Below the pieces are notes generated by a model. That model made no database searches. It was not told the DNA's origin and saw nothing but the letters and a program-made list of their open reading frames with translations. A stretch of 64,000 nt of DNA, taken from NCBI GenBank assembly GCA_044222185.1, contig JBGANV010000001.1, forward strand, positions 224,001-288,000. The letters are read 5' to 3'. The position numbers and the translations under genes were made by a program. Positions within the stretch are counted from its first letter, which is position 1. Each line of letters starts with the position of its first letter. Source of the stretch: Planctomycetota bacterium (GTDB taxonomy: Bacteria; Planctomycetota; GCA-002687715; CAIWVZ01). Positions 24,072 to 63,139 of the stretch are shown here, piece by piece.

Positions 24072-25709
24072 ATGAAGATCAGTACGGCACGGGTCGCATG
24101 GGTCCTGGCGCTCGGAGTGGCGTCGGTTTGCGGGCAGACGATCCTTCATTCCGGCCCGTTCGCGTTCTCCGGCACGACGAGCAAGAACGTCGTTCGGGCC
24201 GCGTCCGGCACGCTGTACGCCGTGTCCATCGCCGGCACCGGAACGTCGAACCCGGTGATCCTGCAGAGCTCCATCGACGGCGGTCAGACCTGGGCGACGG
24301 ACCCCTTCGTCTTCAACGACGCGACGTCGGGACTCAGCGGCCTGTCGACGACGTTGACGAACACGTGCACGGTCGCCATCGACGATCAGGACACGTTGCA
24401 CGTGACGTGGGCGGCGATCTACTACCCGAGCTACTACGCCCAGTACTACCGCAACTACAACCCGCTCACGTCCATCGCGTCAGCGATCCTCAACGTGGCG
24501 ACCGTGACCGGGGCGACGACGGGCACGGCAACGTTCGCGACGGACATCATCGTCGACCAATCGAACGTCGTCTGGATGGCGGCCAAGGGAACCTCGGCGT
24601 GGACCGAGCGCCTCATCCACAGCACGAACCCGTATGCGGCCGGCAACCTCTTCACCGACGTGGGACCCATCAGTCCGACGGCGTCTGCTCAGGTCAGCCG
24701 CCTCGCGATCGATGCCGCCGGCAACGTCCACTGCACGTTCTACCGGAACGTGGGTGCGGGGAACTACGAGCACCGCGTCTACACGCCCGGCATCGGGTGG
24801 GGGACGTCGATCGTCATCGGCAACACGACGCCGACGAACGACTACTACGGCAACATCGCCGCGGATGCGCTCGGCAACGTTCACGCGATCATCGCCAAGG
24901 ACACGTACACCACGAGCACGTGGCAGTTTCGCTACCGCCGTTGGGACGCGACTTTCGGGTGGGGACCCGAGGTGACGCTGTTCGACGCGACGCCGGCGCA
25001 ATACACCGGGATCGCGAACTACTACATCTTCGCTCTGGGGTGCGAGGAGTCCACCGGACTGGTGTCCGTCGTCTACCGCGACCTCACGTCGGGCGGTGCG
25101 CTGCGCGTCGTGCAGAAGGGGCTCACCGACGTCGCGTTCACCGCGCCCGCGGACATCACGACGCCTGCGGCAACGGCGCACGCCTACTACATGCCCACCA
25201 TCCGTGGCACGTTGTTCCCGGTCACGAACCGCACCGGTTTCGACCTGGACCTGACGTGGCAGGCGCGTCCGGCGGGGACGCCTACGCCGCCGTTCGAGTT
25301 CTGGTTCCGTCGGCTGACGGGCGGCTCGCCCGCGTCGATCACGCTGGGAACTCCGGCCGCGATCGGCACGACCGCCCAGGTGAACCTCTCGAGCCCGTTG
25401 GACCCCACCTCGGTCTACATCTGCGGGTTCTCCTTTGGGAATTCTCCGGGGATCCTCCTGCCTGATTTCCGCGTGATTCCGTTGAACCTGGACGACCTGC
25501 TCACGCTCTCGCTCACCGTCGGGAATCCGATCTTCCTCAACACGATTGGAGCCTTGTCGGCCTCCGGCACGGCGTCCGCCCAGATCGTGATCCCGCCGTA
25601 TCCTCCGATCATCGGAGCGACGATCTACGCTGCGTTCGTCGTGCCGAACCCGTCGACGACCTCCGGAATCGGAACGATCTCGCCCTCGCTCGCCATCACG
25701 TTCCAGTGA
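24072..25709 (+). CDS. Secreted BNR/Asp-box beta-propeller-like protein with shared C-terminal domain
   Basis: Signal peptide MKISTARVAWVLALGVASVCG; Asp-box SSIDGGQTW; repeated (I/A)D..G.(L/V)H blades; Pro/Gly-rich C-terminal domain. Confidence 0.75.
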   Translation: MKISTARVAWVLALGVASVCGQTILHSGPFAFSGTTSKNVVRAASGTLYAVSIAGTGTSNPVILQSSIDGGQTWATDPFVFNDATSGLSGLSTTLTNTCTVAIDDQDTLHVTWAAIYYPSYYAQYYRNYNPLTSIASAILNVATVTGATTGTATFATDIIVDQSNVVWMAAKGTSAWTERLIHSTNPYAAGNLFTDVGPISPTASAQVSRLAIDAAGNVHCTFYRNVGAGNYEHRVYTPGIGWGTSIVIGNTTPTNDYYGNIAADALGNVHAIIAKDTYTTSTWQFRYRRWDATFGWGPEVTLFDATPAQYTGIANYYIFALGCEESTGLVSVVYRDLTSGGALRVVQKGLTDVAFTAPADITTPAATAHAYYMPTIRGTLFPVTNRTGFDLDLTWQARPAGTPTPPFEFWFRRLTGGSPASITLGTPAAIGTTAQVNLSSPLDPTSVYICGFSFGNSPGILLPDFRVIPLNLDDLLTLSLTVGNPIFLNTIGALSASGTASAQIVIPPYPPIIGATIYAAFVVPNPSTTSGIGTISPSLAITFQ

Positions 25710-25847
25710 GCGCGCGCCGGGGGGCCTGCGCGTCCCCGAGTGCGTGAATGCGAGTCTCATGCGCGACGCGTCTTCGCGTCGCGCGAATCCCGCTGGCCGC
25801 GTCGCGGCGGCACAGCCACAATCCGGCATCCTTCGCGGAGCCCAGCC

Positions 25848-26843: not shown

Positions 26844-26858
26844 GGGCCTGCGACGCCA

Positions 26859-28559
26859 TCATGGACGCACGACCCGCAGGAAGCGGTTCACAGCGACCCG
26901 CGTGAGGTTCGTCAGCGTGCCGTCGGGCCACCTCACGACGACCTCATCTGCGATCGTCGCCGCACCGATGCCGAAGTGGAGTCGCGGGTCGGGCGCACTG
27001 AGGTACGAGTCGCTGCTGAGAACCTCCCGCCGCTGGCGGCGTCCGCCAGCCACGACCTCGACCACCGTGCCCACAGGTGGGGCTTTTCCTTCGGCCGCGC
27101 AGACGATCGTCAGCCACGCGCCGTGCGGTGAGTCGTTCCGAAGCAGCGTCGGTGGCGCGTCGAGGTTCGAGATCGCGACGTCCAGGTCGCCGTCGTTGTC
27201 GTAGTCGCCGGCGGCGAGTCCGCGGCTGCAGCGCGCGACCCGGAACCCGGGTCCAGCGCGGGAGGACGCATCCGCGAATTTCCCCGAGCCGTCGTTTTCG
27301 AGCAGCGTTGGCGGCTGGAGGTACGTCGCTCCCTTGTCCGGATGCAGGTCGACCTGGGGGTAGATGTGCCCGTTCGCGACGACGAGGTCCAGATCGGCGT
27401 CGCAGTCGAAGTCGGCGAACGTCGTGCCCCAGGACATGGGGTGGAACGTCGCGGCAGCGATCCCCACTGCCGCGCTCACGTCCTCGAAGAAACCCTTGCC
27501 CGTGCCCCGGTAGAGCGTCGATGCATCGTCCGCGAAATTGGTGACGAAGACGTCGACGATCCCGTCGCCATCGGCGTCGCCGAACGTGAGTCCCATGCCT
27601 GCCTGCGCGGCGCCGTTGTGATCGAGCGCCGCCCCCGTCCACAATCCCACCTCTTCGAACGTCCCACCGCCCCGGTTGCGGAAGAGGTAATTCGGGTCGG
27701 AGTCGTTCGCCACGTAGAGGTCGACGTCGCCATCCTGATCCAGGTCCGTTGCGCCGGCGGCGAACCCAAAAGCCAGTGCCGCGTCCGTGAATCCCTGCGC
27801 CTTCGTGCGATCGGAGAACCGACCGTCGCCGTCGTTGTGAAGGAAGTGATCTGGCGCGCCGGCCAGTCCGAACGGGCCCACGGCCACCTTCTCGACGCCC
27901 TTCCAATCGAGCGTTCGTTGGGCGGAGAGGACGCTCTCGAGGGTGCAGTCGATGTAGGCGGCGACGTACAGATCGAGTCGACCGTCGCCGTCCGCATCGA
28001 AGAAGACCGCGCCAGTGTTCCAACGTGGAATCGTCACCCCCGCGCGCTCGGCCACGTCCTCGAAGGTGCCATCGCCTCGGTTGCGATAGAGGAGGTTGGC
28101 GCCGAACGTGGTCACGAACAGGTCTGGCCGACCGTCCCCGTCGAAGTCGCCGACGGCCACGCCGTTGCACCAGCGGCCTTCGCCGCCGACGTGCGCCTGC
28201 TCCGTCACGTCCTCGAACGTGCCGTCCCTCCGGTTGCGATAAAGCGTGTTGCGGCCGCGCTCGGAAACCGCGCCGGCCTGGATCGACCAGCCGTCGAGCA
28301 CGTAGAGGTCGATCCAACCGTCGCCGTCGAAGTCGATCCACGCGAGACCACACCCTGCCGAGTCCAGCAGGTGATCCTTGCCAGGCCGGCCCGCGTGACT
28401 GGCGCGGGTGATGCCGGCAGCAGCCGCCACGTCGACGAACGCGAACCCGACGGCCGCCGTCGCCGCTGCGGGCGCGGCCGTTTGCGGTGGAGAGCACCCC
28501 GTACCGAGGGCTGCGACGAACCAAACCCCCGCAACGGCGATGCGGGCCGCGCGCGTCAC
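26859..28559 (-). CDS. CRTAC1 / ASPIC-UnbV family FG-GAP repeat lipoprotein
   Basis: Lipobox ALGTGC; repeated DFDGDG..DLYV and LYRN.GDGTFEDV; QAGMG; C-terminal LHFGIG...VRWPDG; GTG overlaps upstream stop (alternative ATG 28586). Confidence 0.9.
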   Translation of the reverse strand: MTRAARIAVAGVWFVAALGTGCSPPQTAAPAAATAAVGFAFVDVAAAAGITRASHAGRPGKDHLLDSAGCGLAWIDFDGDGWIDLYVLDGWSIQAGAVSERGRNTLYRNRRDGTFEDVTEQAHVGGEGRWCNGVAVGDFDGDGRPDLFVTTFGANLLYRNRGDGTFEDVAERAGVTIPRWNTGAVFFDADGDGRLDLYVAAYIDCTLESVLSAQRTLDWKGVEKVAVGPFGLAGAPDHFLHNDGDGRFSDRTKAQGFTDAALAFGFAAGATDLDQDGDVDLYVANDSDPNYLFRNRGGGTFEEVGLWTGAALDHNGAAQAGMGLTFGDADGDGIVDVFVTNFADDASTLYRGTGKGFFEDVSAAVGIAAATFHPMSWGTTFADFDCDADLDLVVANGHIYPQVDLHPDKGATYLQPPTLLENDGSGKFADASSRAGPGFRVARCSRGLAAGDYDNDGDLDVAISNLDAPPTLLRNDSPHGAWLTIVCAAEGKAPPVGTVVEVVAGGRRQRREVLSSDSYLSAPDPRLHFGIGAATIADEVVVRWPDGTLTNLTRVAVNRFLRVVRP

Positions 28560-29101
28560 CGTGCGGATATTCCGAGCAACTCCCATTGCGCCGCGACGCG
28601 GCTGAACGCCGCGGAGAGTTGATCGGTCGTGCCGCCATCCGCGGCCTTGCCGATCGTCGTCGCGACATCGAGCAACGCTTTCTTCGCGGCTCGCGTGACG
28701 ATCACGTATCCCTCGTCGTACAGACCCTGCGCCTCGGCATTCGCGTGGTGGTGATGGCCGCCGTCGATGAGCCGTTTGCGAATTCCCCCGACGGCGTTGT
28801 CGCCCTCGTTGCCCAGTTCGGCGACCAATGCCGCGAGCGATTCGATCTCCACCTTCGCGGGTTGTCCGGCCTTGAGCTTGGCATTCGCCTGTTCGAAGGT
28901 GCTCCGAGCGCGCTCGTAGGTCTCGGCGAGGATCGCGCGCACGATGTTCGACTCCGTCTTGTTCAACGCGAGGATCCCGTCGGCGAGGCTGCTGTACGTC
29001 GCGACGAGATCTTTGGGCGTTGCTCGCGGGGCTTCGGCGCGGTGGAAATAGCCCAGACATCCAACTGCGACGCAGGCGACGATGCAGGACGTTGTCTTCA
29101 C
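28556..29101 (-). CDS. Secreted alpha-helical hypothetical protein with GGHHHH motif
   Basis: GAGGAG RBS, N-terminal hydrophobic signal, amphipathic helices, NEGDNAVGGIRKRLIDGGHHHHA. Confidence 0.75.
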   Translation of the reverse strand: MKTTSCIVACVAVGCLGYFHRAEAPRATPKDLVATYSSLADGILALNKTESNIVRAILAETYERARSTFEQANAKLKAGQPAKVEIESLAALVAELGNEGDNAVGGIRKRLIDGGHHHHANAEAQGLYDEGYVIVTRAAKKALLDVATTIGKAADGGTTDQLSAAFSRVAAQWELLGISAR

Positions 29102-29314
29102 GGGTTCGGCTCCTCAGATTCTCCGGCGGGCCCACCGTCGTTCGGCGGGCCCGCCACCCTGGGCGCGTCGATCGCGGAATACGATCGTGGGCGAATTGTC
29201 CCACGCGGGCCGCGCGCGCGCGAGCGTTCCCATGACGTGGCCCCTCGCAGTTCACGGCATCGACGACCGAGAGCCGGGGAGGTGCCCGCGGCTTCGTGCG
29301 ATCGCGACGCCGCC

Positions 29315-29974
29315 TCACCGGCCCGGAAGGACGCTGCGCTCGGCCAGGATCTCCACGACCTCATGGTCGTCCACCTGCCGGAAGTCGTCGTAGTAGTCAC
29401 CGATGGCGACCAGATCGGTCGGGGCCGTGAGCGTGCAGATGCCGTGGACGTCGGCTGCGAAGGAACGGATGGACGACGCCGCCGCGACCGGGACGGCCAG
29501 GATGATCCGTCGTGCACCTCGTTCGCGGGCCAGCATGACGGCAACCCGCGCGGTCGCCCCGGTCGCCAGGCCGTCGTCCACGATCACGACGTCCTTCCCG
29601 CGAATCACCGGGCGTGTCCGATCGGCGACGAAGCGGCCGATTCGGCGTGCGAGCTCGCTCTGAGCCGTCTCGACGGCCTTGTCGACGGCATCGAGGTCGA
29701 GCCCTGCGGCGTCGACGGCGTCATGGTCGATGTACTCGACTCCATCCTCGGCGACCGCTCCTACGGCGTACTCGGGGTTGTCCGCCGGCGTGACCTTGCG
29801 AACGACGAAGACATCCAGGGGAGCGCCGAGCTGTCGTGCCACGGCGTCCGCGACGACGACACCTCCGCGAGGAAGGCCGATCACGATCGGTGAGATCCCT
29901 GGAAACGAAGTGAGAACGCTTCGGCCCAGGAGTTCGCCCGCTTCCCGGCGATCGCGGAAGATTGGCGCGTCCAT
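29315..29974 (-). CDS. Type I phosphoribosyltransferase family protein
   Basis: FRDRREAG, GLPRGGV, VIVDDGLATGAT, AIGDYYDDFRQV. Confidence 0.9.
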   Translation of the reverse strand: MDAPIFRDRREAGELLGRSVLTSFPGISPIVIGLPRGGVVVADAVARQLGAPLDVFVVRKVTPADNPEYAVGAVAEDGVEYIDHDAVDAAGLDLDAVDKAVETAQSELARRIGRFVADRTRPVIRGKDVVIVDDGLATGATARVAVMLARERGARRIILAVPVAAASSIRSFAADVHGICTLTAPTDLVAIGDYYDDFRQVDDHEVVEILAERSVLPGR

Positions 29975-33445: not shown

Positions 33446-33946
33446 TCAGCCCCGAGGGCCTCGGGGCCCCGGACCGCTCTCGCAGGCGCGCCGCCACACC
33501 GCCAGCATGCCGGCGTGAGCGGCCGTGTGCCCCGCCAGCGAGTAGATGACGGCGTGCCCGATCGTCGGCAGGCGGCTCCGCCACCGCACGTCGGGCAGAG
33601 GTGCGCGCAGGCCCGACTCACCGAGCTCGTGCAGACGGTCCGTCACGCGCCTTTCCCCGTCTGCGAGGGCCTGAAGAAGTGCGTCGGTCGCCGGGTAGGC
33701 GGCGTCGGCGCCCAGTGCCGTGCTTCCCGGCGCGAACAGACGGGTCCACTCGTCCGACAGCCACCGTGGGATCCCCAGTTCGTCCCCGATCGCCTGGCAG
33801 GCGAACGTGACGTGTCCCAACGTCCACGCGCCATGGCAGCGGATGCCCGCAGGTTGGCGCGTCATCTCCGTTGGCGAAAGGCCCGTGCAGGCCTGGCGGA
33901 TCTCCGTCAGGCTCATCCGCCAAACGGTCAGGACTTCGTCGATCAT
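33446..33946 (-). CDS. DinB / bacillithiol-transferase-like four-helix protein
   Basis: HGAWTLGHV and HTAAHAG metal-site pattern. Confidence 0.75.
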   Translation of the reverse strand: MIDEVLTVWRMSLTEIRQACTGLSPTEMTRQPAGIRCHGAWTLGHVTFACQAIGDELGIPRWLSDEWTRLFAPGSTALGADAAYPATDALLQALADGERRVTDRLHELGESGLRAPLPDVRWRSRLPTIGHAVIYSLAGHTAAHAGMLAVWRRACESGPGPRGPRG

Positions 33947-34133
33947 GGGGGGATCTTATCCGCGGTTTGGACTGCCCTACGGAGTGGATCGTCGCCCAAG
34001 CGGACGCATCGCCTCCGGCCAGCGGGCACGCCGAGCGCGCACGATTCCGGCGTCCGTCACACCGCGCGAGGGTGTGGGGTGCGATCCCGCGCGCTGTCGC
34101 GTGCCGGTCCGACGTGGAGCGACGAGTGACCCC

Positions 34134-34820
34134 ATGGAATCTGAATCAACCTGCTCGACGTTGATCCGGGCCGCCGCCAGCGGTGACCAATCCAAGCGTG
34201 AAGAGTTCGTGCGGCGCTATGGACCGGTCATTCGCTCGTACTTCGAGTCCACCGCGCGCACCTGGTTGCCGGGGCCCCTCGTGGACGACGCCGTCCAGGA
34301 CGTGTTCATCGAGTGCTTTCGGGTGGGCGGCGTCCTCGATCGGGTCGACGATGACAGGCCCGGCGGGTTCAGGGCATTCCTCTTCGGCGTCGTCAGGAAC
34401 GTCGGCCTGCGAATTCGCATGCGGCAGGCTCGACAGCGCGAAAAGGAGGCTCCGGGCGAGTTCACCTTCGACGCGTTCGAGACGGACGAGACGGACGCCC
34501 CGAAGCGATTCGACGAGGCCTGGGCGGAGGGCCTCATGAAGGAGGCCGCGACCGTGCAGGCCGAGCGGGCACGATCCAGAGGAGTGGACGCGACGCGGCG
34601 CGTCGAGCTCCTCCGCTTGCGGTTCTTCGAAGCGCTCCCAATTCGCGACATTGCCCAGCGATGGGGCTCCGATCCGGCGACGCTTCACCGCGAATACGCG
34701 AAGGCCCGCGGGGAGTTCCGCGACGCATTGCGTGAGGTCGTGAGTTTCGACCATCCGGGGACGAGCGACGAGATCGACGCGCGATGTCTCGAGTTGCTGA
34801 TCTTGCTGGGGCGGCGCTGA
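34134..34820 (+). CDS. ECF sigma factor (kinase-associated, planctomycete type)
   Basis: EEFVRRYGPVI, DDAVQDVF, FRAFLFGVVRN, FDEAWA, region-4 helix-turn-helix PIRDIAQR. Confidence 0.85.
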   Translation: MESESTCSTLIRAAASGDQSKREEFVRRYGPVIRSYFESTARTWLPGPLVDDAVQDVFIECFRVGGVLDRVDDDRPGGFRAFLFGVVRNVGLRIRMRQARQREKEAPGEFTFDAFETDETDAPKRFDEAWAEGLMKEAATVQAERARSRGVDATRRVELLRLRFFEALPIRDIAQRWGSDPATLHREYAKARGEFRDALREVVSFDHPGTSDEIDARCLELLILLGRR

Positions 34821-34897: not shown

Positions 34898-37800
34898 ATG
34901 AGAAGCGGGGGCGACCCCCTTCGGAGCGCAACCGGAATGGATGAAGCACAACCATCGCCGCGACCTGACCCGACAGATTCGCTCTGGGAAACCGCCATGC
35001 GCGCCGAATTCGGGCGGGAAGGCGATGGGGGTCATTCGCACCGTGACCCGTCGTCGGAACTCTGGGTCGGCGGGTCCCTTGGCTCACTTGCCGTGAGCGG
35101 GCTGCGGGCAGTCGACAACTTCGCTCTCGTCGGTGAGATCGGCCGCGGCGGGATGGGGGTCGTGCTCAAGGCTCGTGACGTCATCCTCGAGCGCGACGTG
35201 GCGGTGAAGTTGTTCGCGGGACACCCGACCAGGCCTGAGGAGTCCGCCCGGTTCGATCGCGAATGCCGCGCGATCGCCAAGCTCGATCACCCCAACGTCG
35301 TGCCCATCTACGCCGTCGGCAAGTGCGGCGGCCTTCGCTACTTCGCCATGCCGCTCCTGCCCGGCGCCTCCCTCGCGGGCAGGCTTTCTGCGATGCGGGC
35401 GGCGGGTACCCGCGGCTTTCCGCCGCGTGACGCCGCCAGAATCGCGGCCGGCATCGCCAGCGCGCTCGTTGCCAGCCACGGCGCGAACGTCCTCCACCGC
35501 GACCTGAAACCGTCGAACGTGTTGTTCGACCGCACCGGCGAACCCATGCTCATCGACTTCGGCCTGGCGCGCGATCAGGATCGCGACGACCCGACGCTCT
35601 CCATCGGGTTCCTCGGTACGCCGCGCTACGCCGCGCCCGAGTGCCTTTCAGGCCGAAGCCGGAACGACGTCCGGCTGGACGTGTTCGGGCTCGGCGCCGT
35701 GCTCTACGAGATGCTGACGCTGCGCCCGCCGCGTTCTGGCGAGACGCTGTCCGAGATCCTCGCCGAGGCGCGGGACCGCGAGCCACTGCCGCCGCGCCAG
35801 CTCGACCGACGCGTTCCGAGAGACCTCGAGACGATCTGCTGCAAGGCCTTGGATTGCGATCCGGAGCGTCGGTATCGGACCGCCGCCGATGTCGAGGCCG
35901 ACCTGCGCAGTTTCCTCGACCACCGACCCATCGCGGCGAAGCCCGCCAGTGGCTCGTTGCGGCTGCGGCGGTGGGTCCGCCGCAACCCTTCGAAAGCCAC
36001 GTTGGCCGGAGTCTCCATCGCGGTGCTCATCGGGATGCTGGTGTGGATGTTCGCGCCGGCCGGGGTCGTCGTCGAGACGGAGCCGCCGGGTGCGGCGATC
36101 CTCGTGGACGGAGCGGACACGGGGTCCGCGACACCGGCACGTGTTTCTGCATGGCCTGCGGGCCGACACGAGATTCGCGTCCGCCTGCCGGGCTACGAGC
36201 CACAGGCCCGCGTCGCGCCGAGTGAGCACACGACGGATGGGAGTCCGGTGCGCTTCACGCTCGTCCCCGTGCGTGGATTCTTGACGGTGACATCACCGCT
36301 CAGCGGGGTGCGGGTCGAACTCACGCGAAACGGTGTTTCCGCGACGATGTACGCGCCGTTCACCGACACGAGCGTCGATGCGGGCAGCTACACCCTTCGT
36401 GCGTCACTCGCCAACTACAGGGATCGCCGGCAGGACGTCGTCGTGCGCGAGGGGACGATGACGCGCGTGAACGTCGACTTGGAGCCCATCCTCGTTCGCG
36501 ACATTCCGCTCGACGGCGCCGCGGCGGGCGGCCTGGCCGCGGCCGATTTCGACGGGGATGGGACTCCCGACCTGGCCGTCGTGAGTCGGACGCGACCGGA
36601 ATACGGCACCCTTTCGCTTCTGGACGTGGTGAGCGGTGCGTCCGGGCTTCGCATCTGGAACCGGGGACTCGGACCGCGGGATGGCGTGTCCATTCTCGTC
36701 CTACGGGACTTCGATGGGGACGGCGTGCCGGACGTCGCGCTCGCGTGCTGGTCGCATGGACGGGCCGGTGACGTGTTCGTCTTCTCCGGTCGTACGGGAG
36801 CGCGGCTGTGGCATCGGGTCGGCCCGACAGCCGTCCTGCGGCTCGAGGCCGCCGGGCACGAGACGGATGGGACGCCACGGCTGGTCGCAATCCTTCAGGA
36901 TGGGTCGGTCGAAGGATATTCCGTTCGAAGCGATACGCTCGTGTTCCAGCGGTGGCTCTCGGAGAACGGGAAAGCCGACGCCATCTCGCTCGGTTGGGTC
37001 TGGGATTCAGGCGACCAGGGGCCGTTGATCGCGGGCGGGTGGCCCGATGGTCGGTTCCGCGTGCTTCGTGCGGATGGCTCGGCGACCGCCATCCGCATCG
37101 GTAGCGAGCCGACTGCCGTCGTTCGGCCGTCGGCTGATTGCGACGATGTCGTCGTCGGCTGCAAGGACGGGTCGGTGCACCTGTTGACGCGAGGCGGTAG
37201 TCGTGAACTCGATCGGCTCGAAGGCGGCGCCGTCCTTCGCCTGATCGCCGTGCCCGATCGGAATTCCGATGGCGTCTCCGACATGCTCGTCGCCTGCGGG
37301 GATGGATCGCACGACGTCGTCGCCATGCCGGGCGGCGCTCTCTTGGCGCGTATTCCCGCCGCGGAAGCCGAGGTTGCGGCCAACGATGCCATCCTCGCCA
37401 GCTCGAGCGGCGGCGAGGGCGACGTGGCGTTTGCAGAGAACACGACCGAGGGGCGCTCACGTAACGTGGGCTACGTCCGGTGTACGTCGGTCGATGGGAG
37501 CCGCACCCAGGCGTTTTGGCTCCAGGACTGCATCGCCGTCGGCTTGGCGGCGGCCGATTTCGACGGCGATGGCCTGGAAGACGTGGCGGTCGCGTTCGCG
37601 AACTCCGTATCGCACTCGATGTCGGTGAAGATCCTGTCGTTCCACCCGAGGGGAACGCTTTGGCGCTTCGCCACCGGCGGTCGCGTCTGGTCTTCGCCCG
37701 CAACGGCAGACTTCGATCGCGACGGCCGTCCCGACGTGGTGATCGGATCGAACGACGGCAATCTCTACGCGCTCAGCGGCCGTGATGGCCACGTTCTCTG

Positions 37801-46767: not shown

Positions 46768-46911
46768 TGCCGGGTCTCGATCGCCGGTGCGGCGCGCGAT
46801 CGGACGGTCGTGGCCGGCGCTGCGACGGCCGTCGGACGCCCACGGTCAGGGGGGCTGCGGGCCGTCCTCGGCCGCGGCCCTCGCGTTCCTGTGGTAGAAA
46901 CGTCCCCACGC

Positions 46912-47553
46912 ATGAGCGTGGGAGTCGACAATTCGAGCCCGGATGGCGTTCCCGGGAATACCCGAGGCCGCGGCGCGCACGACCTCGCCGCGGTCGTCGC
47001 CACGATCACCCGATCGGGCGATCGTCTCTGCGCCGACGACATCCTGCCTGGGATCTATGCCGAGCTGCGACGCCTCGCGGCCGCACGACTCGCGCGGGAA
47101 CGCGACCCGAGGAGCCTCACGCCGACGGCCCTCGTTCACGAGGCCTATCTGCGCGTCGTCGCCGGACTCGGTGGCGTCGAGCCTTCGTGGAATGGGAAGG
47201 GCCACTTCTTCGCCGCGGCCGCGCTCGCCATGCGACGGATCCTCGTGGAGCGGGCGCGGCGCAAGCGGCGTGCGAACGATCCGGTCACGGTGTCGGGACT
47301 GGCGGCGCCAGATCCAGCGGAGGGGTTCGGCGGCGAGCGTGGCATCGACCTCGTGAGCCTCGACGAGGCGCTGAAGCAACTCGAGCGGGTGGACAAGCTC
47401 AAGCACGACATCGTGATGGCGCGGTACTTCGGCGGACTCACCGTCGATGGCGCGGCCGAGGTGCTGCGCATCTCGCCGTCGACGGTGAAGCGGGAGTGGA
47501 ATTTCGCTCGGGCGTGGCTTCTCGTTCGGATGGACGGCGAGGAAACGACGTGA
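46912..47553 (+). CDS. ECF sigma factor, TIGR02999 / ECF43-like
   Basis: IYAELRRLA, SLTPTALVHEAYLR, HFFAAAALAMRRILVERAR, RYFGGLT, TVKREWNFARAWL. Confidence 0.92.
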   Translation: MSVGVDNSSPDGVPGNTRGRGAHDLAAVVATITRSGDRLCADDILPGIYAELRRLAAARLARERDPRSLTPTALVHEAYLRVVAGLGGVEPSWNGKGHFFAAAALAMRRILVERARRKRRANDPVTVSGLAAPDPAEGFGGERGIDLVSLDEALKQLERVDKLKHDIVMARYFGGLTVDGAAEVLRISPSTVKREWNFARAWLLVRMDGEETT

Positions 47554-50500: not shown

Positions 50501-51228
50501 ACGACGACGGAACGAGGCTCGCGAGCGGATCGCCGAACGGCGCCTTGCGGCTTTGGGATACGCGTACGGGTGCCTGCGTCCTGAACGTGCGGCGCGGAGT
50601 CTCCATGGACGAAGGCCTTTCGTTCTCCGCCGATGGATCGCGATTGATCGGACGCGATCTCGCCGTCGGCGACGCGTGGGTGCTCGACGCCGGATCGGCG
50701 GCCGAGCGTCGCGTCCTGCGACGGCTCGACGAGGTGTGCTCTCCGTCGAAGGTTCGCGCGGCCCTCGAGGCCGACGCGATGCTTTCGCCCGACGAGCGGG
50801 GCCACTCGATCGAATGCCTCTCGCGTGTGGGGCATGACGCTCAGCGGTTGAACGACGATGCCTACGCGCTCTGCAACTGGGGCAGCGCCACGCCGGGCGA
50901 GCACGAGCGGGCCTACGAGCTGGCGGCGGCTGCGGTCGAACTCGCGCCGAACGCCGGCTGGTTCCTCAACACCCTCGGGTGTGCACAAGTGCGCACGGGG
51001 CGATTCTCCGAGGCCGTCGCGACACTCGAGCGGGCAGTCGCCCTCAACGAGACGATGCAGTCGGACTTCGCGTTGCTCGCGATCGCTCAGGCGAGGTCAG
51101 GGCACGTCACCGAAGCGCGCGCCGCCCTCGAGCGGGCGCGTTCGCTCGTCGGTCTCGGCGCCAGCGAGGTGGCACTCCTGATGGAAGCCGAAACCGTGGT
51201 GGGCGCCCCCGTCAGCGGCGGGCGGTGA
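47584..51228 (+). CDS. Ser/Thr kinase with WD40 repeats and C-terminal TPR-like helices
   Basis: LGHGGMGSVY, VALK, HRDLKPSN, DFGVAK, GTLQYMSPEQ; hydrophobic ALVIGFAATALALAIGAAA; LRNFEW; GH...WD repeats; LNTLG...GRFSEAV. Confidence 0.92.
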   Translation: MGLRDEEALFHELVDLAPEAQKVRLELIDDLALRDRLIRLLRAFRSEALPDPLGVPLEWLGGDPAPLIGRSIGEYRIERLLGHGGMGSVYVATQEHPRRRVALKVIGAGVLSPSARRRFSTEVQVLGTLKHPGIAQIYEAGVHDLGGAPLQWFAMELIEGESLVDFCRRHACDHRRILELFAQVAEAVGHAHARAIVHRDLKPSNILVESASVDRPDLSGRAKVLDFGVAKSIAEHDAAGATATGGVVGTLQYMSPEQAAGRPDVDCASDVYSLGLILFELLAGRRAYEIEGLSFSAAVRVVTESQPPTVRRFDRDVPGDVDVILRKSMDKEPERRYPNASHLAADIRRYLSNVPITARSPTVFYLASRFARRHRALVIGFAATALALAIGAAATWSKAVDLDRALENVAVERGVSRLRGYVGLIATADGALGNGDVRAARAALDAAPPELRNFEWWALYRRLDQSVRTITPGRPTFGLFGMAANGSQICGVGPKNGLRRWDAASGAELSTLRPAVGSIHAWASDSTGRRFAFLTAERRVAVNSEDSAEGSREILGPQPDLEQIAWHGDRIVVAGATRALEIDPAAGATQRPRAIDLSGGLLLRLSPSMGWIAVLTPDRRWEVRDDRGAVVLSDPTSTGVARYAWSSDGRIFLVIDGDGRGSTWNLETRQRVSRVALPAEPFALEWVVCPSGRQVACVGPSQSIRVFDTAVLQTAGTRWLGHRDVVVGAGYSRDGSLWTASGDRTFKRWPASGADVISGTAGTVQPADGSLVTVGSDGAITRYEDGESRLLARLPQDVRPFLARLSPDASHVFTIGAPRQSAAVVWSVDGPRRLRQLSMPSDFTALTSTRVIEWDRVSSLSSYRLDAPGTPEWTKPIQGAYLNAAAVDATESSLGFGLAGGAFVVLDVATGSVVRAFPGVGGAVTVGFAFDRPSSRIAVAYSDRLIRIWNLRTGTIDIVLEGHSMEVCGLAFNDDGTRLASGSPNGALRLWDTRTGACVLNVRRGVSMDEGLSFSADGSRLIGRDLAVGDAWVLDAGSAAERRVLRRLDEVCSPSKVRAALEADAMLSPDERGHSIECLSRVGHDAQRLNDDAYALCNWGSATPGEHERAYELAAAAVELAPNAGWFLNTLGCAQVRTGRFSEAVATLERAVALNETMQSDFALLAIAQARSGHVTEARAALERARSLVGLGASEVALLMEAETVVGAPVSGGR

Positions 51229-55795: not shown

Positions 55796-55817
55796 AGGCG
55801 CTGCGCGGCGGGCACGT

Positions 55818-56270
55818 TCACCCGGCGGGGCACCCAGGCGCGATGAGCTTGGTGAGGCCGAACTGCGGATAGGGGATTCGCTCCATCCGGCCCGTCCGGA
55901 TGATCGTCACCTCCAGGATGATCGACGCGACGGCGCGGAATACGTGCCCGCCGAACGCGGCGAAATCCCGGCCCGTGAAGAGGCCATGCGCATGCAGGAA
56001 GGGCTTGCCGTCCTTCATCGACAGGTTCCCGGAAAGGGCGACGACTTCGACCCGCTCGAGCACTCGCCGGCGCATGTAGACGTTCTCGGGCAGGCTGAAG
56101 TACCCCAGCTCCATGTCGTCCACGGCCCCGATCGCCGAGACGACGCCGCCCTCGATCCCGTGTTTCGCGGCCGCGTCGATGACCGAGGCGTGAAGCTCGT
56201 CGCCAGGTGACAGGGTGACGAGCGTCGCCTTCGTGCCCCCAGCCGGATGATCGATGTCTGCGGTGTCCAT
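55818..56270 (-). CDS. PPC / DUF296 domain protein
   Basis: SAIGAV, EVVALSGN, HAHG, GGHV. Confidence 0.88.
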   Translation of the reverse strand: MDTADIDHPAGGTKATLVTLSPGDELHASVIDAAAKHGIEGGVVSAIGAVDDMELGYFSLPENVYMRRRVLERVEVVALSGNLSMKDGKPFLHAHGLFTGRDFAAFGGHVFRAVASIILEVTIIRTGRMERIPYPQFGLTKLIAPGCPAG

Positions 56271-56399
56271 GGCGGGCGTTTTAGACGGTCACTCGGCTCG
56301 AATCAGCGCGCGCACGCGGAATCGCGTGCCGTTGCCCGTGGGCGACCGCCGTGGAATCATGGCCGCTCGCCGATTTTGGCCGAGATTCCGAGGCGCGAC

Positions 56400-59048
56400 A
56401 TGACCGAGCTCTCCACCCGCTACACGCCCAACGAGGTCGAGGACCGCTGGTACAAGACCTGGTCCGACGAGAAGTGCTTCAAGCCCGAAGCCGTAGACGG
56501 TGCGACGAAGTCCCACGTCATCGTCATCCCTCCGCCGAACGTCACGGGCGCGCTGCACATGGGGCACGCGCTCAACAACACGCTCCAGGACATCCTGACG
56601 CGCTTCCGCCGCATGCAGGGGTTGGCGGCGCTCTACCTTCCCGGCACGGACCACGCGGGCATCGCCACCCAGAACAGGGTGGAGAAAGCCATCGAGAAGG
56701 AAGGCAAGACGCGGGATCAGCTCGGGCGCGACGCCTTCATCGAACGCGTGTGGGCGTGGAAGGAGCAGTACGGCGGCCGGATCATCGGCCAGTTGAAGAA
56801 GCTCGGCTGCTCGTGCGACTGGGACCGCGAGCGCTTCACCATGGACGAGGGCCTGTCGAAGGCCGTCGCCCACAGCTTCGTGGCGCTGCACGAGAAGGGG
56901 CTGATCTACCAGGGCGAGCGGCTCATCAACTGGTGTCCGCGGTGCCTCACGGCGTTGTCGGACGAGGAGGCGGAGGCGAATCCCGAGAACGGCTCGTTCT
57001 TCCACCTGCGTTATCCCGTCGAAGGCGAGCCCGGTCGCTACGTGGTCGTGGCGACGACGCGCCCCGAAACGATGTTCGGCGACACGGCCGTCGCCGTGCA
57101 CCCCGACGACGAGCGCTACCGCGGCCTCATCGGCAAGCGACTCATCCTGCCGATCGCCGACCGGCCCATTCCCGTGATTGCCGACCACCACGCCGACCCG
57201 ACCAAGGGCTCGGGCGCGGTGAAGATCACGCCGGCGCACGACTTCAACGACTTCGAGGTGGGCAACCGCCATGGCTTGCCGCGCGTGCGCGCCATGGACG
57301 AGCACGGTCGGATGACGGAGGCGGCGGCGCCGTTTACCGGTCTCGATCGTTTCGAGGCGCGCAAGAAGCTCGTCGCGCTCCTCACGGAACGCGGCCTCCT
57401 CGATCGCGTGGAGGACAAGGAGATCCCGCTCCCGCGCTGCTACCGCTGCACGACGGTGGTGGAACCGCGCCTTTCGAAGCAGTGGTTCGTGAAGATGCGT
57501 CCGCTGCTCGAGCCCGCGGCGGAAGCCGTGCGCGACGGCCGCATCCGCTTCGTGCCCGAGCGCTACGCGCGGACGTACTTCGACTGGGTCGAGCAGTACC
57601 GCGATTGGTGCATCAGCCGCCAGATCTGGTGGGGGCATCGGATCCCTGCGTACACCAACGGGCAGGGGAAGACCGTGGTCTCGCTCACGCCACCCAAGGC
57701 CGCGCCAGGGGAGACGTGGACGCAGGACCCGGACGTGCTCGACACGTGGTTCTCGTCCCAGCTCTGGCCATTCAGCACGCTCGGGTGGCCGGACGCGACG
57801 CCGGACCTCGCGCGGTTCTATCCCACGGACGTCCTCGTGACGGCACGGGACATCATCTACTTCTGGGTGGCGCGCATGGTGATGTGCGGCCTGGAATTCA
57901 TGGGGAAGGCTCCGTTCCACACGGTGTACATCACGGGCACCGTGCTCGACGACCAGGGCCGCCGCATGAGCAAGTCGCTCGGCAACGGCATCGATCCGGT
58001 CGAGATGATCGACAAGTACGGCGCGGACGCCGTGCGCTTCTCGCTGGTCACGCTCGCGACCGAGGGGCAGGACATCAAGCTTGCCGAGAGCCGGTTCGAG
58101 GGCGGCCGCAACTTCGTCAACAAGCTGTGGAATGCGTCGCGCTTCGTGATGATGACGACGCAGGACTGCGCTGGCGGCGAGCCGAAGGGCCCGCTCGCTC
58201 CCGAAGACCGTTGGGTGCGCAGCCGCGCGAACGCCGCGATCCGCGAGGTGACCGAGCAACTGGACAAGCTCCGGTTCGCGGATGCCGGCCGCACGCTCTA
58301 CGAGTTCACGTGGAACGTCTTCTGCGACTGGTACCTCGAGCTGACCAAGTCGCGCATGCAGGATCAGTCGCCGGAGGGTGCTGCAAGCCGCGGCACGGCG
58401 CAGGCGATCCTGATCCAGACGCTGGACGTGATCCTACGGCTGCTCCACCCCATCGCGCCGTTCGCGACGGAGGAGATCCGCAGCCACCTCCTCGCGAAAC
58501 TGCCCGGCGCGCGCAACCGTTTGATCCTCGAGCATTGGCCCGTGGCCAATCCCGCGTGGGACGATCCGGCCGCCGAGCGCGAGATCGACGTGCTCGTCGC
58601 CATCGTGAAGACGGCACGCGTCGTCCGCGAGGAGCTGAAGCTCGAGAAGCGCAAGCCGCTGAAGCTGCTCGTGAACGTCCGCGATGCGTCCGCCATCCGC
58701 GTGATCGACGCCGTGCGCGACCGCTGCGTCGCCATGGGCATCCTGGAGGAACTGCGCGTGGGCGTCGGCATGGACAAGCCCAAGGGCGCCGTCACGAAGC
58801 TTGCGCTCGATCTCGAGATCTACATCCCCATGGAAGGTCTCGTGGACGTGGAGGCCGAGCGCGCGCGGCTGAAGAAGCAGCTCGAGGAGGCCGAAGGCTT
58901 CGCCGAAGGCAAGCGGAAGAAGCTCGGCAATCAGGACTTCGTGGCGCGGGCGAAGCCCGAGGTCGTGGATCGCGAGCGGGCGCAGCTCGCCGAGCTGGAA
59001 GAGAAGGCGGCGCGCCTCAAGCAGAGTCTGATCGACCTGGGCGGATGA
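56400..59048 (+). CDS. valS: Valine--tRNA ligase
   Basis: PPPNVTGALHMGH, DHAGIATQ, ATTRPET, DWCISRQIWWGH, DVLDTWFSS, RMSKS, C-terminal coiled coil. Confidence 0.97.
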   Translation: MTELSTRYTPNEVEDRWYKTWSDEKCFKPEAVDGATKSHVIVIPPPNVTGALHMGHALNNTLQDILTRFRRMQGLAALYLPGTDHAGIATQNRVEKAIEKEGKTRDQLGRDAFIERVWAWKEQYGGRIIGQLKKLGCSCDWDRERFTMDEGLSKAVAHSFVALHEKGLIYQGERLINWCPRCLTALSDEEAEANPENGSFFHLRYPVEGEPGRYVVVATTRPETMFGDTAVAVHPDDERYRGLIGKRLILPIADRPIPVIADHHADPTKGSGAVKITPAHDFNDFEVGNRHGLPRVRAMDEHGRMTEAAAPFTGLDRFEARKKLVALLTERGLLDRVEDKEIPLPRCYRCTTVVEPRLSKQWFVKMRPLLEPAAEAVRDGRIRFVPERYARTYFDWVEQYRDWCISRQIWWGHRIPAYTNGQGKTVVSLTPPKAAPGETWTQDPDVLDTWFSSQLWPFSTLGWPDATPDLARFYPTDVLVTARDIIYFWVARMVMCGLEFMGKAPFHTVYITGTVLDDQGRRMSKSLGNGIDPVEMIDKYGADAVRFSLVTLATEGQDIKLAESRFEGGRNFVNKLWNASRFVMMTTQDCAGGEPKGPLAPEDRWVRSRANAAIREVTEQLDKLRFADAGRTLYEFTWNVFCDWYLELTKSRMQDQSPEGAASRGTAQAILIQTLDVILRLLHPIAPFATEEIRSHLLAKLPGARNRLILEHWPVANPAWDDPAAEREIDVLVAIVKTARVVREELKLEKRKPLKLLVNVRDASAIRVIDAVRDRCVAMGILEELRVGVGMDKPKGAVTKLALDLEIYIPMEGLVDVEAERARLKKQLEEAEGFAEGKRKKLGNQDFVARAKPEVVDRERAQLAELEEKAARLKQSLIDLGG

Positions 59049-59087: not shown

Positions 59088-61250
59088 TCACTTGAAACCG
59101 GCCAGGCTGTTCGGCGCGCCTTCGAGGCGGAACTCGACGAAGTAGCGCGCTTCCTTCCGGTCGCGGACCTGGAAGCTCATGAGGCACACGAGGGTCGAGC
59201 CCTTCTCGACGGAGACCTTCGTCGCCTCCGACGACTTGGGAACTACGACGGGGTTGACGTTCGGGACGGGGATCAGCGCTCCTGAGGTCGCCTTCAGGTA
59301 GAGCCCCTCCTGGGCCTGGATCTTCTCCTTGCCCTGCATGATCGTGTGGCCCGTGGACCACATGACGCAGTAGCTGCCCTTCGGAACGGCGCCGTTCATC
59401 AGATCAACTTCCGTCGCGAGGAAGCCCAGCAGGATCGGGCTCTTCTGATCCCGTGCGAGCGTCTTCATGCGCGCGGCATCCACGAATTCCTTCGTGTCGC
59501 GAATCGCAAGCGCGATGTTCTTGGCGCGGGCCGGGAGCTGTTTCTCGGCGTCCCATCCGCCGGTCATCACACCGCCGAGCTTCGACGCATCGTCCATGGC
59601 GATGCGCGGCATGTCCTTCTCGTCCTTCAGCGGCGGGCCGCTGTCCTTCATGCGCGCCGCGATGAGGTTTCCGCCGGCGATGCGCTCGAGGTAATCGCGG
59701 CCCTTCGCCTTGGACGCCGCCACGCGGAATCCGACGAGCTCGGCTGAATCCTTGACGCGCGCCGTGCGCCATGCGGAGGTCACGCAAAGGTCCGGGTGAA
59801 GCGCACCGCCACCGCGCAGTGTGAGCAGGCCCGAGCTGAACTCGGGTTGGGCGGCGCCCTTCGTGGGGCACTTGTCGGGGCTGTAGCCCGGATAGGCCTC
59901 GAACTGGCTCGACGTCATCTCGAGGGCGTTGCCGGCCATGTCGTTGATGCCGAGTGCCGACTTCCCGCCTGGGAACGACCCAACGGGGAGGAGCTTGTTC
60001 TTGCCTTGCCGGTTCGGGTGGGCGGCCGCGCTCTGGTTGTTGCACACGGGCTTGCCGCGATCGTAGTCGTCACCCCACGGGAAGATGTGGTTCGCCTTGT
60101 CGTTCGCGCCCTTGGCCCGGGCCGCCGCTTCCCACTCGAACTCGGTCGGCGGGCGGACGCCGCACCACTCACAGAAGGCGACCATGTCCTCGTAGGTGAC
60201 CCACGTCACCGGGTAGTCCTCCGTGCCCGGAGCCGGGACGCGCTCGCCCGAGGCGGCGGTCGGAGCCGCCGCGGCCTGCTGTTCCGTGGGGCCTGGGCCG
60301 GGACCCGCCGGAGCGGTGCCCACGGAGGCGGGTGCGCCGCCCTTCGGCGCACCTGCGCCATCGACGGGCACCCAGTGCTTGGGCGCCGCATGGCCCGTGT
60401 CCTTCACGAATTCGAGGTACGCGCGGTTCGTCACCTCGTTGATGCCGATGTAGAAGTCGTCGATCTGTACCTCGCGTGCCGGCCACCCGATGCCGGCCTG
60501 GAAGTTCAGCCCCTGGTCGCCCGAGTAGGAGAGCAGCTTGCGGAGTGCCGTCTGCTCGTCGGTGTCCATCCCGATGCGGACCTTGCCACCGGGTACGAAG
60601 ACCATTCCCGGGGGAGCGCCGAGGGCTCGGGCCTTCGCCGTCGCCGCGAGGTCGTCCATCCGGCGTTTCAGCGCGGCCATCTCGTCCTGGACCTCGGTGA
60701 GTTTCTTCTCGAAGGTCGGGGCCATCTTCTTGTAGGCCTCGTCGAAGTTCTTCGTCTCGAAGACCTCACCCAGCGTTTCACCGACGACGGCCCCGTAGTT
60801 CACGGGCGCGTCGCTCCTCAAAGCGTCGAGGAGTGCCGCCGACATGGGGACTTCGAGGACGAGCGAGAGGTTGCGCCCGATGGTCGTGGCGATCGCTTCG
60901 CGGACCTCGGTCTGGACCGTGGTGTAGACCTGAGGCTTGGCGCCGGGCTTGCCCCCGGCTGCAGCGGCCATCTTGGCGGCTTCCTGGACCTGAGTTCTGT
61001 ACTTCGTCCCGGTCTCCTCGAGCTTCTTCGCGAGGCTGCCCTTCGTGTCGGCGTTGCCAGCGTTCTTGAACTCGACGGCGACCGCTTCCTTCTTCTTGTT
61101 GGCGCGATCCTGCTCTTCCTTGATCCGGGCTTCGACCTTCTTCATCTCGGCCTGGATCTTGGCGCCCTCGTCCTGACCCGATGCGAGCGTCGAGCACGTC
61201 AGGATGAGGATCAGCAGGGCAAGCGTATGGCGCGGGCGCGCATCGAGCAT
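59088..61250 (-). CDS. Exported FGE-sulfatase (SUMF1) domain protein with N-terminal coiled coil
   Basis: Signal ALLILILTCSTLASG; K/E-rich helices; GMVFVPGG, EVTN, PVTWV, PTEFEWEAAAR, FPWG, DMAGNALE, GFRV; alternative start 61280. Confidence 0.85.
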   Translation of the reverse strand: MLDARPRHTLALLILILTCSTLASGQDEGAKIQAEMKKVEARIKEEQDRANKKKEAVAVEFKNAGNADTKGSLAKKLEETGTKYRTQVQEAAKMAAAAGGKPGAKPQVYTTVQTEVREAIATTIGRNLSLVLEVPMSAALLDALRSDAPVNYGAVVGETLGEVFETKNFDEAYKKMAPTFEKKLTEVQDEMAALKRRMDDLAATAKARALGAPPGMVFVPGGKVRIGMDTDEQTALRKLLSYSGDQGLNFQAGIGWPAREVQIDDFYIGINEVTNRAYLEFVKDTGHAAPKHWVPVDGAGAPKGGAPASVGTAPAGPGPGPTEQQAAAAPTAASGERVPAPGTEDYPVTWVTYEDMVAFCEWCGVRPPTEFEWEAAARAKGANDKANHIFPWGDDYDRGKPVCNNQSAAAHPNRQGKNKLLPVGSFPGGKSALGINDMAGNALEMTSSQFEAYPGYSPDKCPTKGAAQPEFSSGLLTLRGGGALHPDLCVTSAWRTARVKDSAELVGFRVAASKAKGRDYLERIAGGNLIAARMKDSGPPLKDEKDMPRIAMDDASKLGGVMTGGWDAEKQLPARAKNIALAIRDTKEFVDAARMKTLARDQKSPILLGFLATEVDLMNGAVPKGSYCVMWSTGHTIMQGKEKIQAQEGLYLKATSGALIPVPNVNPVVVPKSSEATKVSVEKGSTLVCLMSFQVRDRKEARYFVEFRLEGAPNSLAGFK

Positions 61251-61687
61251 GGGAGTTCGCTCCGGCGAAGGGTGATTCATTCCGTCATCGGCGGACCGTG
61301 CGGGTCGGTGGCCGGGCCGAATGCCGAGCCGAACCGGACCGTCGATCCGCGGGCTGCACCTTGGTTTCGCACCACGCCACGATGCCCGGACGCCGACCAC
61401 CGAGCGCGTTCGCTCGTGATTGGCCATCGGGGTGGGAAAGTGCCATGTCGGGAAGTCAGGGCTCAGAGTGTTTGGGAACCGACATGGGGGCCGAGGAGTG
61501 GCTCCATCCTTGGCACGAGGTGTTGGCGCAGAGTCTACGGGCGCCGACCCTGGAAGCAAGCGCTCCGCGGCACCCGCGAAGCCCCGCTTCACCCCGGTCT
61601 CCTGACGCCCGGACCGTCCATGGAGGGACGGACGGCCTGGGCTCCCCGAGGTGACAGCGGACCCGCGGAGACGGTCTCAGCGCCCGT

Positions 61688-63139
61688 TCAGTTGATCGTG
61701 AACTGGCGGCCGTTCGACAGGCGGACCCCGCCGTCTCGGTCGACGGTCACCGCTTGCAAGTACACGGGCAGCCCGGAGATGCCTGGGGCGACGGGGATCG
61801 TGAACCCGGCGGAGGCCTGCCCGGCGACGCTCCCCGTGCCGCTCGCGAGAACGTCGAACGGGGGAGTCAGCAGGACGGTGTGGGGCCCGGCGATGATGGG
61901 GCCGGCCCCGGACAACGAGACGTAGATCGCCCAGGGGGACTGGAACTCGCAATTCGCGACGCCCAGGGTGAGGCCGGCCCCCTGGTTGACGGTCGCCGGC
62001 GCCGTGAGCGAAAGGGCATAGTTCGGAAGGTGGCAGAGGACGTCGACGCGGGTTCGGCCCTGCATCGAGACGACGATCCGGCTCCCGTCCTGGGTGAAGA
62101 CGGCGTCGTTCGGGCGCGCCGTGCTGCCATGGTCGTAGACACTCAGCACGCCGAACGTGGCGAGATCGACGAGCACGGTCTCGCCCCCGTTCAGCGACGT
62201 GACGGCCGCGGTCGTTTCGCTCGCGTTGACTCCGAGTCCGTGGAGCACGATGCCCGTCACGGTGTTCAGGTTCAGCGTGCGGAGAACGGCGCCCGTCGTC
62301 AGGCTGCACTCGTAGAGCGTCGGAAAGACCTCGAATCCCACGGTCACGAGGACCCGATTGCCGCTGATGACGTGCGCCTCGTACGCCGCCGTGTAGTGGT
62401 TGACGATGGGCTGGGTGATGGCGTACGGGGTCTGATTGGACGGATTCGTGACGTCGACGATCGTGAACCCCGCGATGGCGAAGGAGAACGTGGGGTCGTA
62501 GGTCGACGTGGGGACGACCATCAGCGGCCAGGTCCACCAGGACGGGCGTCCGCCACCGCCGACGACGGTGAAGGAGCTGAGCCGCGTGTTGAACGTCGGG
62601 CTCGTCGGGTCGACGTCGAGGACCTCGACGACGTCGCAGCCGCCGACGGTCGTCACGTAGAGCCGTGTCTGGTCCGGCGAAACCAGCAACCCGAACGGGA
62701 AGCTCCCCTGGAAGACCGAGCCGAAGCAGGGCGACAGGGCGATCGTCGCGATCGGTTGGAGGTTCGGGAGCAGGCACGTCACGGTCCCGCTCGTCGAATT
62801 CGAGACGTAGAGGTGCCGCGTCGCACCGGATGCGTCGCGCAGGACGGCGATGTCCTCGGGGAACAGCCCCGTCTGGCCGATCGCGGTCTGCGCACCGGTG
62901 AACAGGTCGAAGGAGACCACGTCGTCGTTGTTCGGCGCCGTGCCTGGGAACGACAGCTCGCCCGCGATGGTGGCGTACGCATGGACGCCATCAGGATCGA
63001 GAGCGACGCCGAATCCCTTGTCGGGGGACAGCGGGTCGCCGTCGTTCAGCATGAAGCTGCGTTCGAGCGACTGCGCGGCGAGCACTTGGGGAATGACGAA
63101 CGCGATGCCCAGGACCAGGGCGAAGGAAAGGACTTTCAT
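61688..63139 (-). CDS. Secreted YncE/YVTN-type beta-propeller protein with shared C-terminal domain, under cobalamin riboswitch
   Basis: Signal MKVLSFALVLGIAFVIPQVLA; blades GLFPEDIAV, LYVSNS, FPFGLLVSPDQTRLYVT, RPNDAVFTQDGSRIVVS. Confidence 0.85.
   Translation of the reverse strand: MKVLSFALVLGIAFVIPQVLAAQSLERSFMLNDGDPLSPDKGFGVALDPDGVHAYATIAGELSFPGTAPNNDDVVSFDLFTGAQTAIGQTGLFPEDIAVLRDASGATRHLYVSNSTSGTVTCLLPNLQPIATIALSPCFGSVFQGSFPFGLLVSPDQTRLYVTTVGGCDVVEVLDVDPTSPTFNTRLSSFTVVGGGGRPSWWTWPLMVVPTSTYDPTFSFAIAGFTIVDVTNPSNQTPYAITQPIVNHYTAAYEAHVISGNRVLVTVGFEVFPTLYECSLTTGAVLRTLNLNTVTGIVLHGLGVNASETTAAVTSLNGGETVLVDLATFGVLSVYDHGSTARPNDAVFTQDGSRIVVSMQGRTRVDVLCHLPNYALSLTAPATVNQGAGLTLGVANCEFQSPWAIYVSLSGAGPIIAGPHTVLLTPPFDVLASGTGSVAGQASAGFTIPVAPGISGLPVYLQAVTVDRDGGVRLSNGRQFTIN

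Follow-up and report, generated by a model that had tools for sequence, protein, structure and literature searches.

We analysed the four tail-bearing genes of a 64,000-nucleotide stretch of contig JBGANV010000001.1 (hereafter the window), chromosomal DNA that carries housekeeping genes and has a G+C content of 66–69% throughout. A preliminary description, made by eye, had claimed that four proteins with signal peptides and different passenger domains end in a similar beta-type tail, a candidate signal for outer-membrane export or surface attachment. As judged from the open reading frame (ORF) list and the translations, all four ORFs were present at the places given.

Gene 1 (24072–25709, forward strand; ORF and translation) encodes 545 residues from an ATG at 24072: a signal peptide, a beta-rich passenger and tail 1 (25341–25706), a member of the immunoglobulin (Ig)-like tail family described below. 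The passenger had been labelled a BNR propeller, which could not be verified: no match was obtained in Pfam, NCBIfam or PDB sequences. Gene 2 (39724–41112, forward strand) encodes 462 residues with a signal peptide, a Kelch propeller and tail 2 (40687–41109, aligned core at about 40891–41061), a plausible, weakly supported member of the family. Its Kelch passenger was borne out by Pfam (Kelch_1, 2.6e-50, five stretches) and the product is already on record as an identical 462-residue protein (P0059).

Gene 3 (41344–46767, forward strand) encodes 1807 residues: a signal peptide, a region resembling S1 proteases, a run of five roughly 200-residue repeats, two PGGG repeats and tail 3 (46396–46764), which is probably a family member and holds an insertion of some 17 residues. 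The trypsin-like protease label finds weak support in a GDSG motif and in S1-type PDB matches at about 1e-3. The PGGG repeats matched CoaZ_rpt_PGGG (‘choice-of-anchor Z’, NF058597) at 3.8e-39, with 132.6 bits against a curated cut-off of 30, in two stretches near residues 1389–1477, and tail 3 follows them. The interior of the same protein (42670–45120) consists of the five repeats, which belong to no Pfam family and carry the motif [FY][VA]x-x-NGHxG at residues 443, 649, 852, 1053 and 1251. On one side of the five repeats is the S1-like region (GDSG at nucleotide 42340), on the other are the PGGG repeats (nucleotides 45733 and 46003).

Gene 4 (61688–63139, reverse strand) encodes 483 residues with a signal peptide, a YVTN/YncE-type propeller and tail 4 (61691–62041), the founding member of the family and an Ig-like beta-sandwich. 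The YncE propeller was supported by a match to a surface layer protein (PDB 1l0q, 1.6e-10), and relatives of gene 4 carry the name YncE in one source.

Signal peptides were called by inspection and by a crude hydrophobic-stretch test. All four N-termini were signal-peptide-like, and the same test was passed by one of 12 cytoplasmic-type proteins of the window. In none of the four proteins did the last 20 residues hold a C-terminal hydrophobic helix or a basic cluster. The view that the tails are neither PEP-CTERM nor LPXTG signals is thus upheld: the helix and basic tail are absent and no such NCBIfam model matched.

A tail family grown from gene 4

Compared directly, the four tails barely resemble one another. 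All-against-all BLASTP of the last 160 residues returned a sole match, a 27-residue stretch between genes 1 and 4 (E 0.003 in a four-sequence database), the remaining pairs being at chance level. Aligned alone by MAFFT, the tails shared three invariant columns and tail 3 was misaligned, while hidden Markov models (HMMs) made from any subset of the window tails in leave-one-out trials never recovered the tail left out. Since this comparison was barely above chance, the family was built independently of the by-eye alignment. Regular-expression motifs did single out tails 2 and 3 among the window ORFs; they were not counted as evidence because they had been written after viewing those two tails.

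The seed profile contained tail 4 and its two orthologues and no other window tail. Searched against 1.84 billion representative proteins, it gave 47 matches at E ≤ 1e-3, 13 of them at E ≤ 1e-10. About half were relatives of gene 4, with propeller and tail; the others carried different passengers, identified by Pfam as FG-GAP (P0033, P0037, P0041, P0043, P0052), subtilase (P0034), PETase-like hydrolase (P0038), right-handed beta-helix (P0040) and SBBP (P0053). Further members came from a later, word-indexed search: LVIVD proteins (P0054–56), one more FG-GAP protein (P0058) and one protein with no Pfam match (P0057). Word-indexed protein searches were otherwise nearly blind to the family, with two relatives for tail 4 and seven matches for a 27-sequence alignment; such a search found no close relatives of tail 2.

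The 27 aligned tails display a clear pattern, G..l.l.v.g ... SL.G.GP ... l.L..P ... D..G.A...l.vP..P.L.G..vY.QA ... rlSN.l.l.i, in which the last strand is conserved and reaches the C-terminus. The profile of these 27 sequences matched 52 proteins, and the 52-sequence profile was likewise grown from tail 4 only, window tails 1–3 being left out. As a control, the family profile was run against 12,277 ORFs from 1.33 Mb surrounding valyl-tRNA synthetase (ValRS) genes in 80 genomes of many phyla, eight loci labelled Planctomycetota included, and none matched at E < 0.5. The 64-kb window, by comparison, contains two HMMER-detectable copies and two weaker ones.

Three multi-stretch or low-complexity matches of the narrow profile (P0018, P0027, P0030) were discounted and set aside, because the broader profile does not match them. 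P0018 is a protein of 2750 residues with 19 CARDB repeats, in which the narrow profile matches 14 weak stretches at profile positions 9–36; either distant Ig-like kinship or a compositional match may account for it.

We then consider whether tails 1, 2 and 3 belong to this family. Among all 633 six-frame ORFs of the window, hmmsearch recovered tail 4 at E 7e-39 and tail 1 at E 0.0034 (2.9e-4 with an earlier version of the profile). Tail 2 scored 2.2 bits, in the right register and not significant, and tail 3 was not found. Profile-to-sequence comparison by hhalign, a more sensitive approach, gave with the 27-sequence profile P 3.1e-5 over 92 columns for tail 1, P 0.0099 over 48 columns for tail 3 and P 0.021 over 24 columns for tail 2. 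With the 52-sequence profile, tail 1 scored 29.5 (P 8.5e-5, 90 columns), tail 3 scored 22.7 (P 0.0019, 89 columns, full length with the 17-residue insertion) and tail 2 scored 18.7 (P 0.011, 25 columns). All three alignments were in register with the C-terminus and ended at the C-terminal motif of the family.

These scores were set against 140 decoys. Of the decoys, 22 were passenger segments from the four proteins themselves, and 118 were the C-terminal 145 residues of every other window ORF that is 200 residues or longer. No decoy reached 18.7, the highest scoring 15.9; the tails picked by eye are therefore the three best of 121 window C-termini. Similarly, none of 60 shuffles of each tail reached the score of that tail (means 11.1–11.5, standard deviations 1.8–2.5). 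Each tail was also compared by phmmer with 50 family proteins, a reversed database serving as control. Tail 1 had several in-register matches (P0043 at 23.3 bits, P0023 at 17.1; reversed maximum 5.6) and tail 2 an in-register match to P0048 (11.7 bits over 51 residues; reversed maximum 6.0). The best match of tail 3, P0032 (13.7 bits; reversed maximum 4.4), was out of register. Tail 2 gained nothing in score when tails 1 and 3 were included in the profile.

Part of these results would fit another explanation, in which tails 2 and/or 3 are non-homologous and resemble the family as any beta-rich C-terminus rich in glycine, proline and alanine might, the domain then being common to two proteins only. 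The hmmsearch outcome for both tails agrees with it, as do the low hhalign probabilities (2–14%), the out-of-register phmmer match of tail 3 and the absence of relatives from which a profile of tail 2 could be built. A single-sequence AlphaFold model of tail 3, made with no alignment, also failed (predicted local distance difference test score, pLDDT, 36.4). Yet both tails stand above every decoy and every shuffle, both lie in the C-terminal register, tail 3 over 89 columns, tail 2 matches P0048 in register, and the three candidates hold the top scores among the window C-termini. We regard non-homology as quite improbable.

Judged by these sequence comparisons, tails 4 and 1 are certain to share a domain, tail 3 is probably a member of the family and tail 2 plausibly so. 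That the family is real and common to tails 1 and 4 we hold to be very highly probable. For the domain claimed for four proteins, the profile scores against decoys and shuffles give firm ground for tail 1, moderate ground for tail 3 and weak ground for tail 2.

Fold and kinship of the domain

AlphaFold, run on tail 4 with the 27-sequence alignment, returned a very confident all-beta model (pLDDT 95.0, predicted template modelling score 0.86) of ten strands in 115 residues, an Ig-like sandwich. Foldseek found at least 500 matches in the PDB. The 50 listed were Ig-like sandwiches only, at template modelling (TM) scores of 0.45–0.63 and 8–19% identity; they included superoxide reductases, SoxZ/SoxY, T-cell receptor and nanobody V domains, a macroglobulin MG domain, the Deinococcus HPI S-layer protein and a chitin-binding domain of the lytic polysaccharide monooxygenase type. 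The tail domain is accordingly modelled as a generic Ig-like beta-sandwich of about 105–115 residues.

Sequence libraries (Pfam-A, 2025 copy, and NCBIfam 20.0) gave no name to it. The four window tails matched nothing in Pfam at E ≤ 10 except one chance-level hit (0.67), and no Pfam or NCBIfam family was matched at E ≤ 1 by more than one of the 27 aligned tails. Models of type IX secretion system (T9SS) C-terminal domains, PEP-CTERM, carbohydrate-binding, PKD, Big, FN3 and pre-peptidase C-terminal (PPC) domains were all without a match in these scans; membership in a known carbohydrate-binding family, one of the outcomes against which the preliminary description had set its proposal, thus received no sequence match. 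Against PDB sequences the best E of the family profile was 0.09, and all matches were antibody light chains.

In a language-model atlas, tails 4 and 3 adjoin clusters of ‘hypothetical proteins’ of 111–131 residues with no Pfam families, mostly from Planctomycetota (scores 0.91–0.93), which we treat as a lead and not as a test. A second atlas lead, to CHRD domains (scores 0.77–0.80), was unsupported by the Pfam scans. The papers listed by literature searches, judged by title and abstract opening, held no description of such a domain in Planctomycetota. The family appears new to Pfam-A and NCBIfam; its general type is already familiar, since secreted proteins that finish in an Ig-like sandwich are known.

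Several known systems invite comparison. PPC domains are terminal beta-sandwich domains of secreted bacterial enzymes. They resemble the tail as beta-sandwiches that end secreted proteases and hydrolases, and the tail family has a subtilase member (P0034). However, no PPC model matched, either the four window tails at E ≤ 10 or the 27 family tails at E ≤ 1, and the tail family is found on non-enzymatic propellers too. PEP-CTERM, LPXTG, MYXO-CTERM and GlyGly-CTERM signals similarly occupy the C-terminus of surface proteins, after domains of the ‘choice-of-anchor’ type. They consist of a motif, a transmembrane helix and a basic tail in about 25–35 residues, whereas the tail folds into a domain of about 115 residues that lacks both the helix and the basic tail, and none of their models matched it.

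The archaeal surface-layer protein 1l0q combines a YVTN propeller and a PKD domain, which is Ig-like. Besides the match of the gene 4 propeller, the general layout agrees, in that the propeller of a cell-surface protein precedes an Ig-like domain. It differs in that the tail matches no PKD model and in that the organisms and their envelopes are not alike.

Terminal position and possible roles

Across the family the domain was almost always last. Its end lay within six residues of the C-terminus in 49 of the 52 matched proteins, and within three in 48. Signal-peptide-like N-termini were likewise frequent: 26 of the 32 members of at least 250 residues that start with methionine passed the crude test, against the one in 12 cytoplasmic-type controls. 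The passengers were unrelated, as had been described for the window, and comprised FG-GAP, subtilase, hydrolase, beta-helix, LVIVD, SBBP and YVTN propeller types by Pfam.

Three proteins (P0016, P0046, P0047) make exceptions to the terminal position. In P0046 (709 residues) the domain, at residues 50–160, comes after a lipobox-type signal and before an M23 peptidase and BTRD1 (polyglycine-hydrolase-like) repeats; in P0047 a signal peptide is followed by the domain at residues 31–136. Both are real members, because they score 57 and 54 bits and were outside the training alignment. The third, P0016, is a fragmentary record of 111 residues in which a tail copy runs into 49 residues rich in arginine and proline in place of a stop; the extension looks like a frameshift or read-through.

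One reading of such an arrangement would take the tail as a cargo tag like that of the T9SS, recognized by a dedicated outer-membrane translocon and followed by cleavage or covalent attachment. The models for T9SS C-terminal domains are TIGR04183 for type A and TIGR04131 for type B. T9SS C-terminal domains are compact seven-strand 3+4 Ig-like sandwiches (PMC11285876; PMC4804311). There are points of likeness: in nearly all members an Ig-like sandwich forms the very C-terminus, the proteins mostly have signal-peptide-like N-termini, their passengers are of many kinds, identity between the copies of one genome is low, the conserved last strand ends at the C-terminus itself, and in gene 3 the tail is placed after choice-of-anchor repeats.

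There are differences as well. No T9SS C-terminal domain model matched the four whole proteins (NCBIfam at E ≤ 0.1) or the 27 members (E ≤ 1), and none of the 50 Foldseek matches listed was a T9SS C-terminal domain. The modelled tail has ten strands in about 115 residues and not seven arranged 3+4. No candidate machinery was seen among the 33 other window ORFs scanned. The host, by its ValRS (see below), probably belongs to Planctomycetota, in which T9SS is not known. The domain is N-terminal in P0046 and P0047, which argues against an obligatory C-terminal export signal. We hold it unlikely that a T9SS-like translocon reads the domain. In a further version, Planctomycetota would possess an as yet undescribed system for export through the outer membrane or for surface attachment, with the tail as its cargo tag; the tag would be analogous in function to the T9SS C-terminal domain and unrelated to it in sequence, and the rare N-terminal copies would be secondary re-uses. 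This version we judge equally unlikely. The original reading of the tail as an export or attachment signal finds partial support: the terminal place, unrelated passengers, signal peptides and choice-of-anchor context speak for it, while the two N-terminal copies and the lack of any T9SS match do not.

At the other end stands the sober default, an ordinary accessory Ig-like module for ligand or glycan binding, spacing or folding, which has no sorting role and merely tends to come last. The generic fold suits it well, the best structural matches being superoxide reductase, SoxZ, V-set Ig, MG and S-layer proteins at the TM scores given above, and so do the N-terminal copies in P0046 and P0047, the divergence of the domain at the rate of its passenger (see below) and the weak multi-stretch similarity to the CARDB-repeat protein P0018. 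Against this, a binding module subject to shuffling would not usually keep so near-exclusively to the terminal place on seven or more types of passenger, true members showed no tandem copies, and the carbohydrate-binding, Big, PKD and FN3 models went unmatched. Such a module is somewhat unlikely to be the whole explanation, although it deserves more credit than the cargo tag.

We tentatively favour a third possibility, retention at the cell envelope, as a reading that we hold with less than even confidence. After Sec export, the tail domain would serve as a common envelope-proximal module that holds working domains as varied as propellers, proteases and hydrolases at the cell surface. Holding would occur by non-covalent binding of the tail to an envelope component, so that the tail would be a retention or display module and not a cleaved export tag. 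We prefer retention because the domain forms a complete and stable fold, unlike a short signal; because in P0046 it comes first after the lipobox, that is, at the membrane-proximal end; because the propeller-plus-Ig plan recalls the surface-layer protein matched by gene 4; and because the tail of gene 3 comes after choice-of-anchor domains, where a surface anchor stands in other lineages. ‘Choice-of-anchor’ is the term for domains from surface proteins whose anchors are of alternative kinds (10.1101/2023.03.06.531300).

A number of observations weigh against envelope retention. In 17 relatives of gene 4, the tail (29–55% identity) and the passenger (29–59%) diverge in step. Since the two rates are alike, there is no sign of constraint by a common receptor beyond that on an ordinary domain. 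Within this one genome, the four tails are only about 20–28% identical in pairs, tail 2 is a weak member, and tail 1 lacks the Q of the Y.QA motif, near-constant elsewhere in the family. Ig-like domains without any part in sorting, moreover, form the end of many secreted bacterial proteins. Over long divergence the tail domain has remained joined to its passenger.

Surroundings, host lineage and meaning

The window also carries two serine/threonine kinase loci and a planctomycete-type extracytoplasmic function (ECF) sigma factor (PF07638). On either side, genes 2 and 3 are bracketed by a pair made of a sigma-factor gene and, after it, the gene of a giant serine/threonine kinase. On one side these are a sigma-like gene (33720–34820), with a sigma-like C-terminus by eye and no Pfam match, and a kinase gene (34898–39466) with kinase, PEGA and FG-GAP domains; on the other, the ECF sigma gene (46810–47553, PF07638) and a kinase gene (47584–51228) with kinase, WD40 and TPR domains. 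The flanking pairs may regulate both surface-protein genes. Two further products of the window are probably exported or surface-located and are devoid of the tail: beside gene 4, an 834-residue protein that contains an FGE-sulfatase domain (59088–61592, reverse strand) and, near gene 1, an FG-GAP/ASPIC protein (26859–29318, reverse strand).

The lineage of the host was approached through the ValRS gene of the window (56247–59048, forward strand). The 80 best matches kept from a scan of species-representative genomes came from many phyla at 44–54% identity, and among these 80 there was no close relative, no synteny and no sign of the genome of the window itself. In a FastTree tree of 79 ValRS sequences, the window ValRS fell in a fully supported clade of nine sequences, and seven of the eight others were from Planctomycetota. 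The eighth (locus L038, 10001–12643), from a metagenome-assembled genome labelled Fibrobacterota, was sister to the window ValRS with a support of 95; this placement could stem from a bin labelled wrongly, from gene transfer or from long-branch attraction. ValRS, as a single gene, together with the PF07638 sigma factor and the taxa of the atlas clusters, points to a poorly sampled planctomycete lineage.

Outer-membrane protein transport and surface retention are poorly understood in planctomycetes. A terminal domain common to many exported proteins of unrelated kinds offers a concrete handle on both, and the family profile can be used in genome surveys and in phylogenetic profiling for partner machinery. 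Even if the tail were a mere accessory Ig-like module, it would define a clear family with a confident model, undescribed in current Pfam and NCBIfam, and its addition to these libraries would annotate part of many ‘hypothetical’ proteins.

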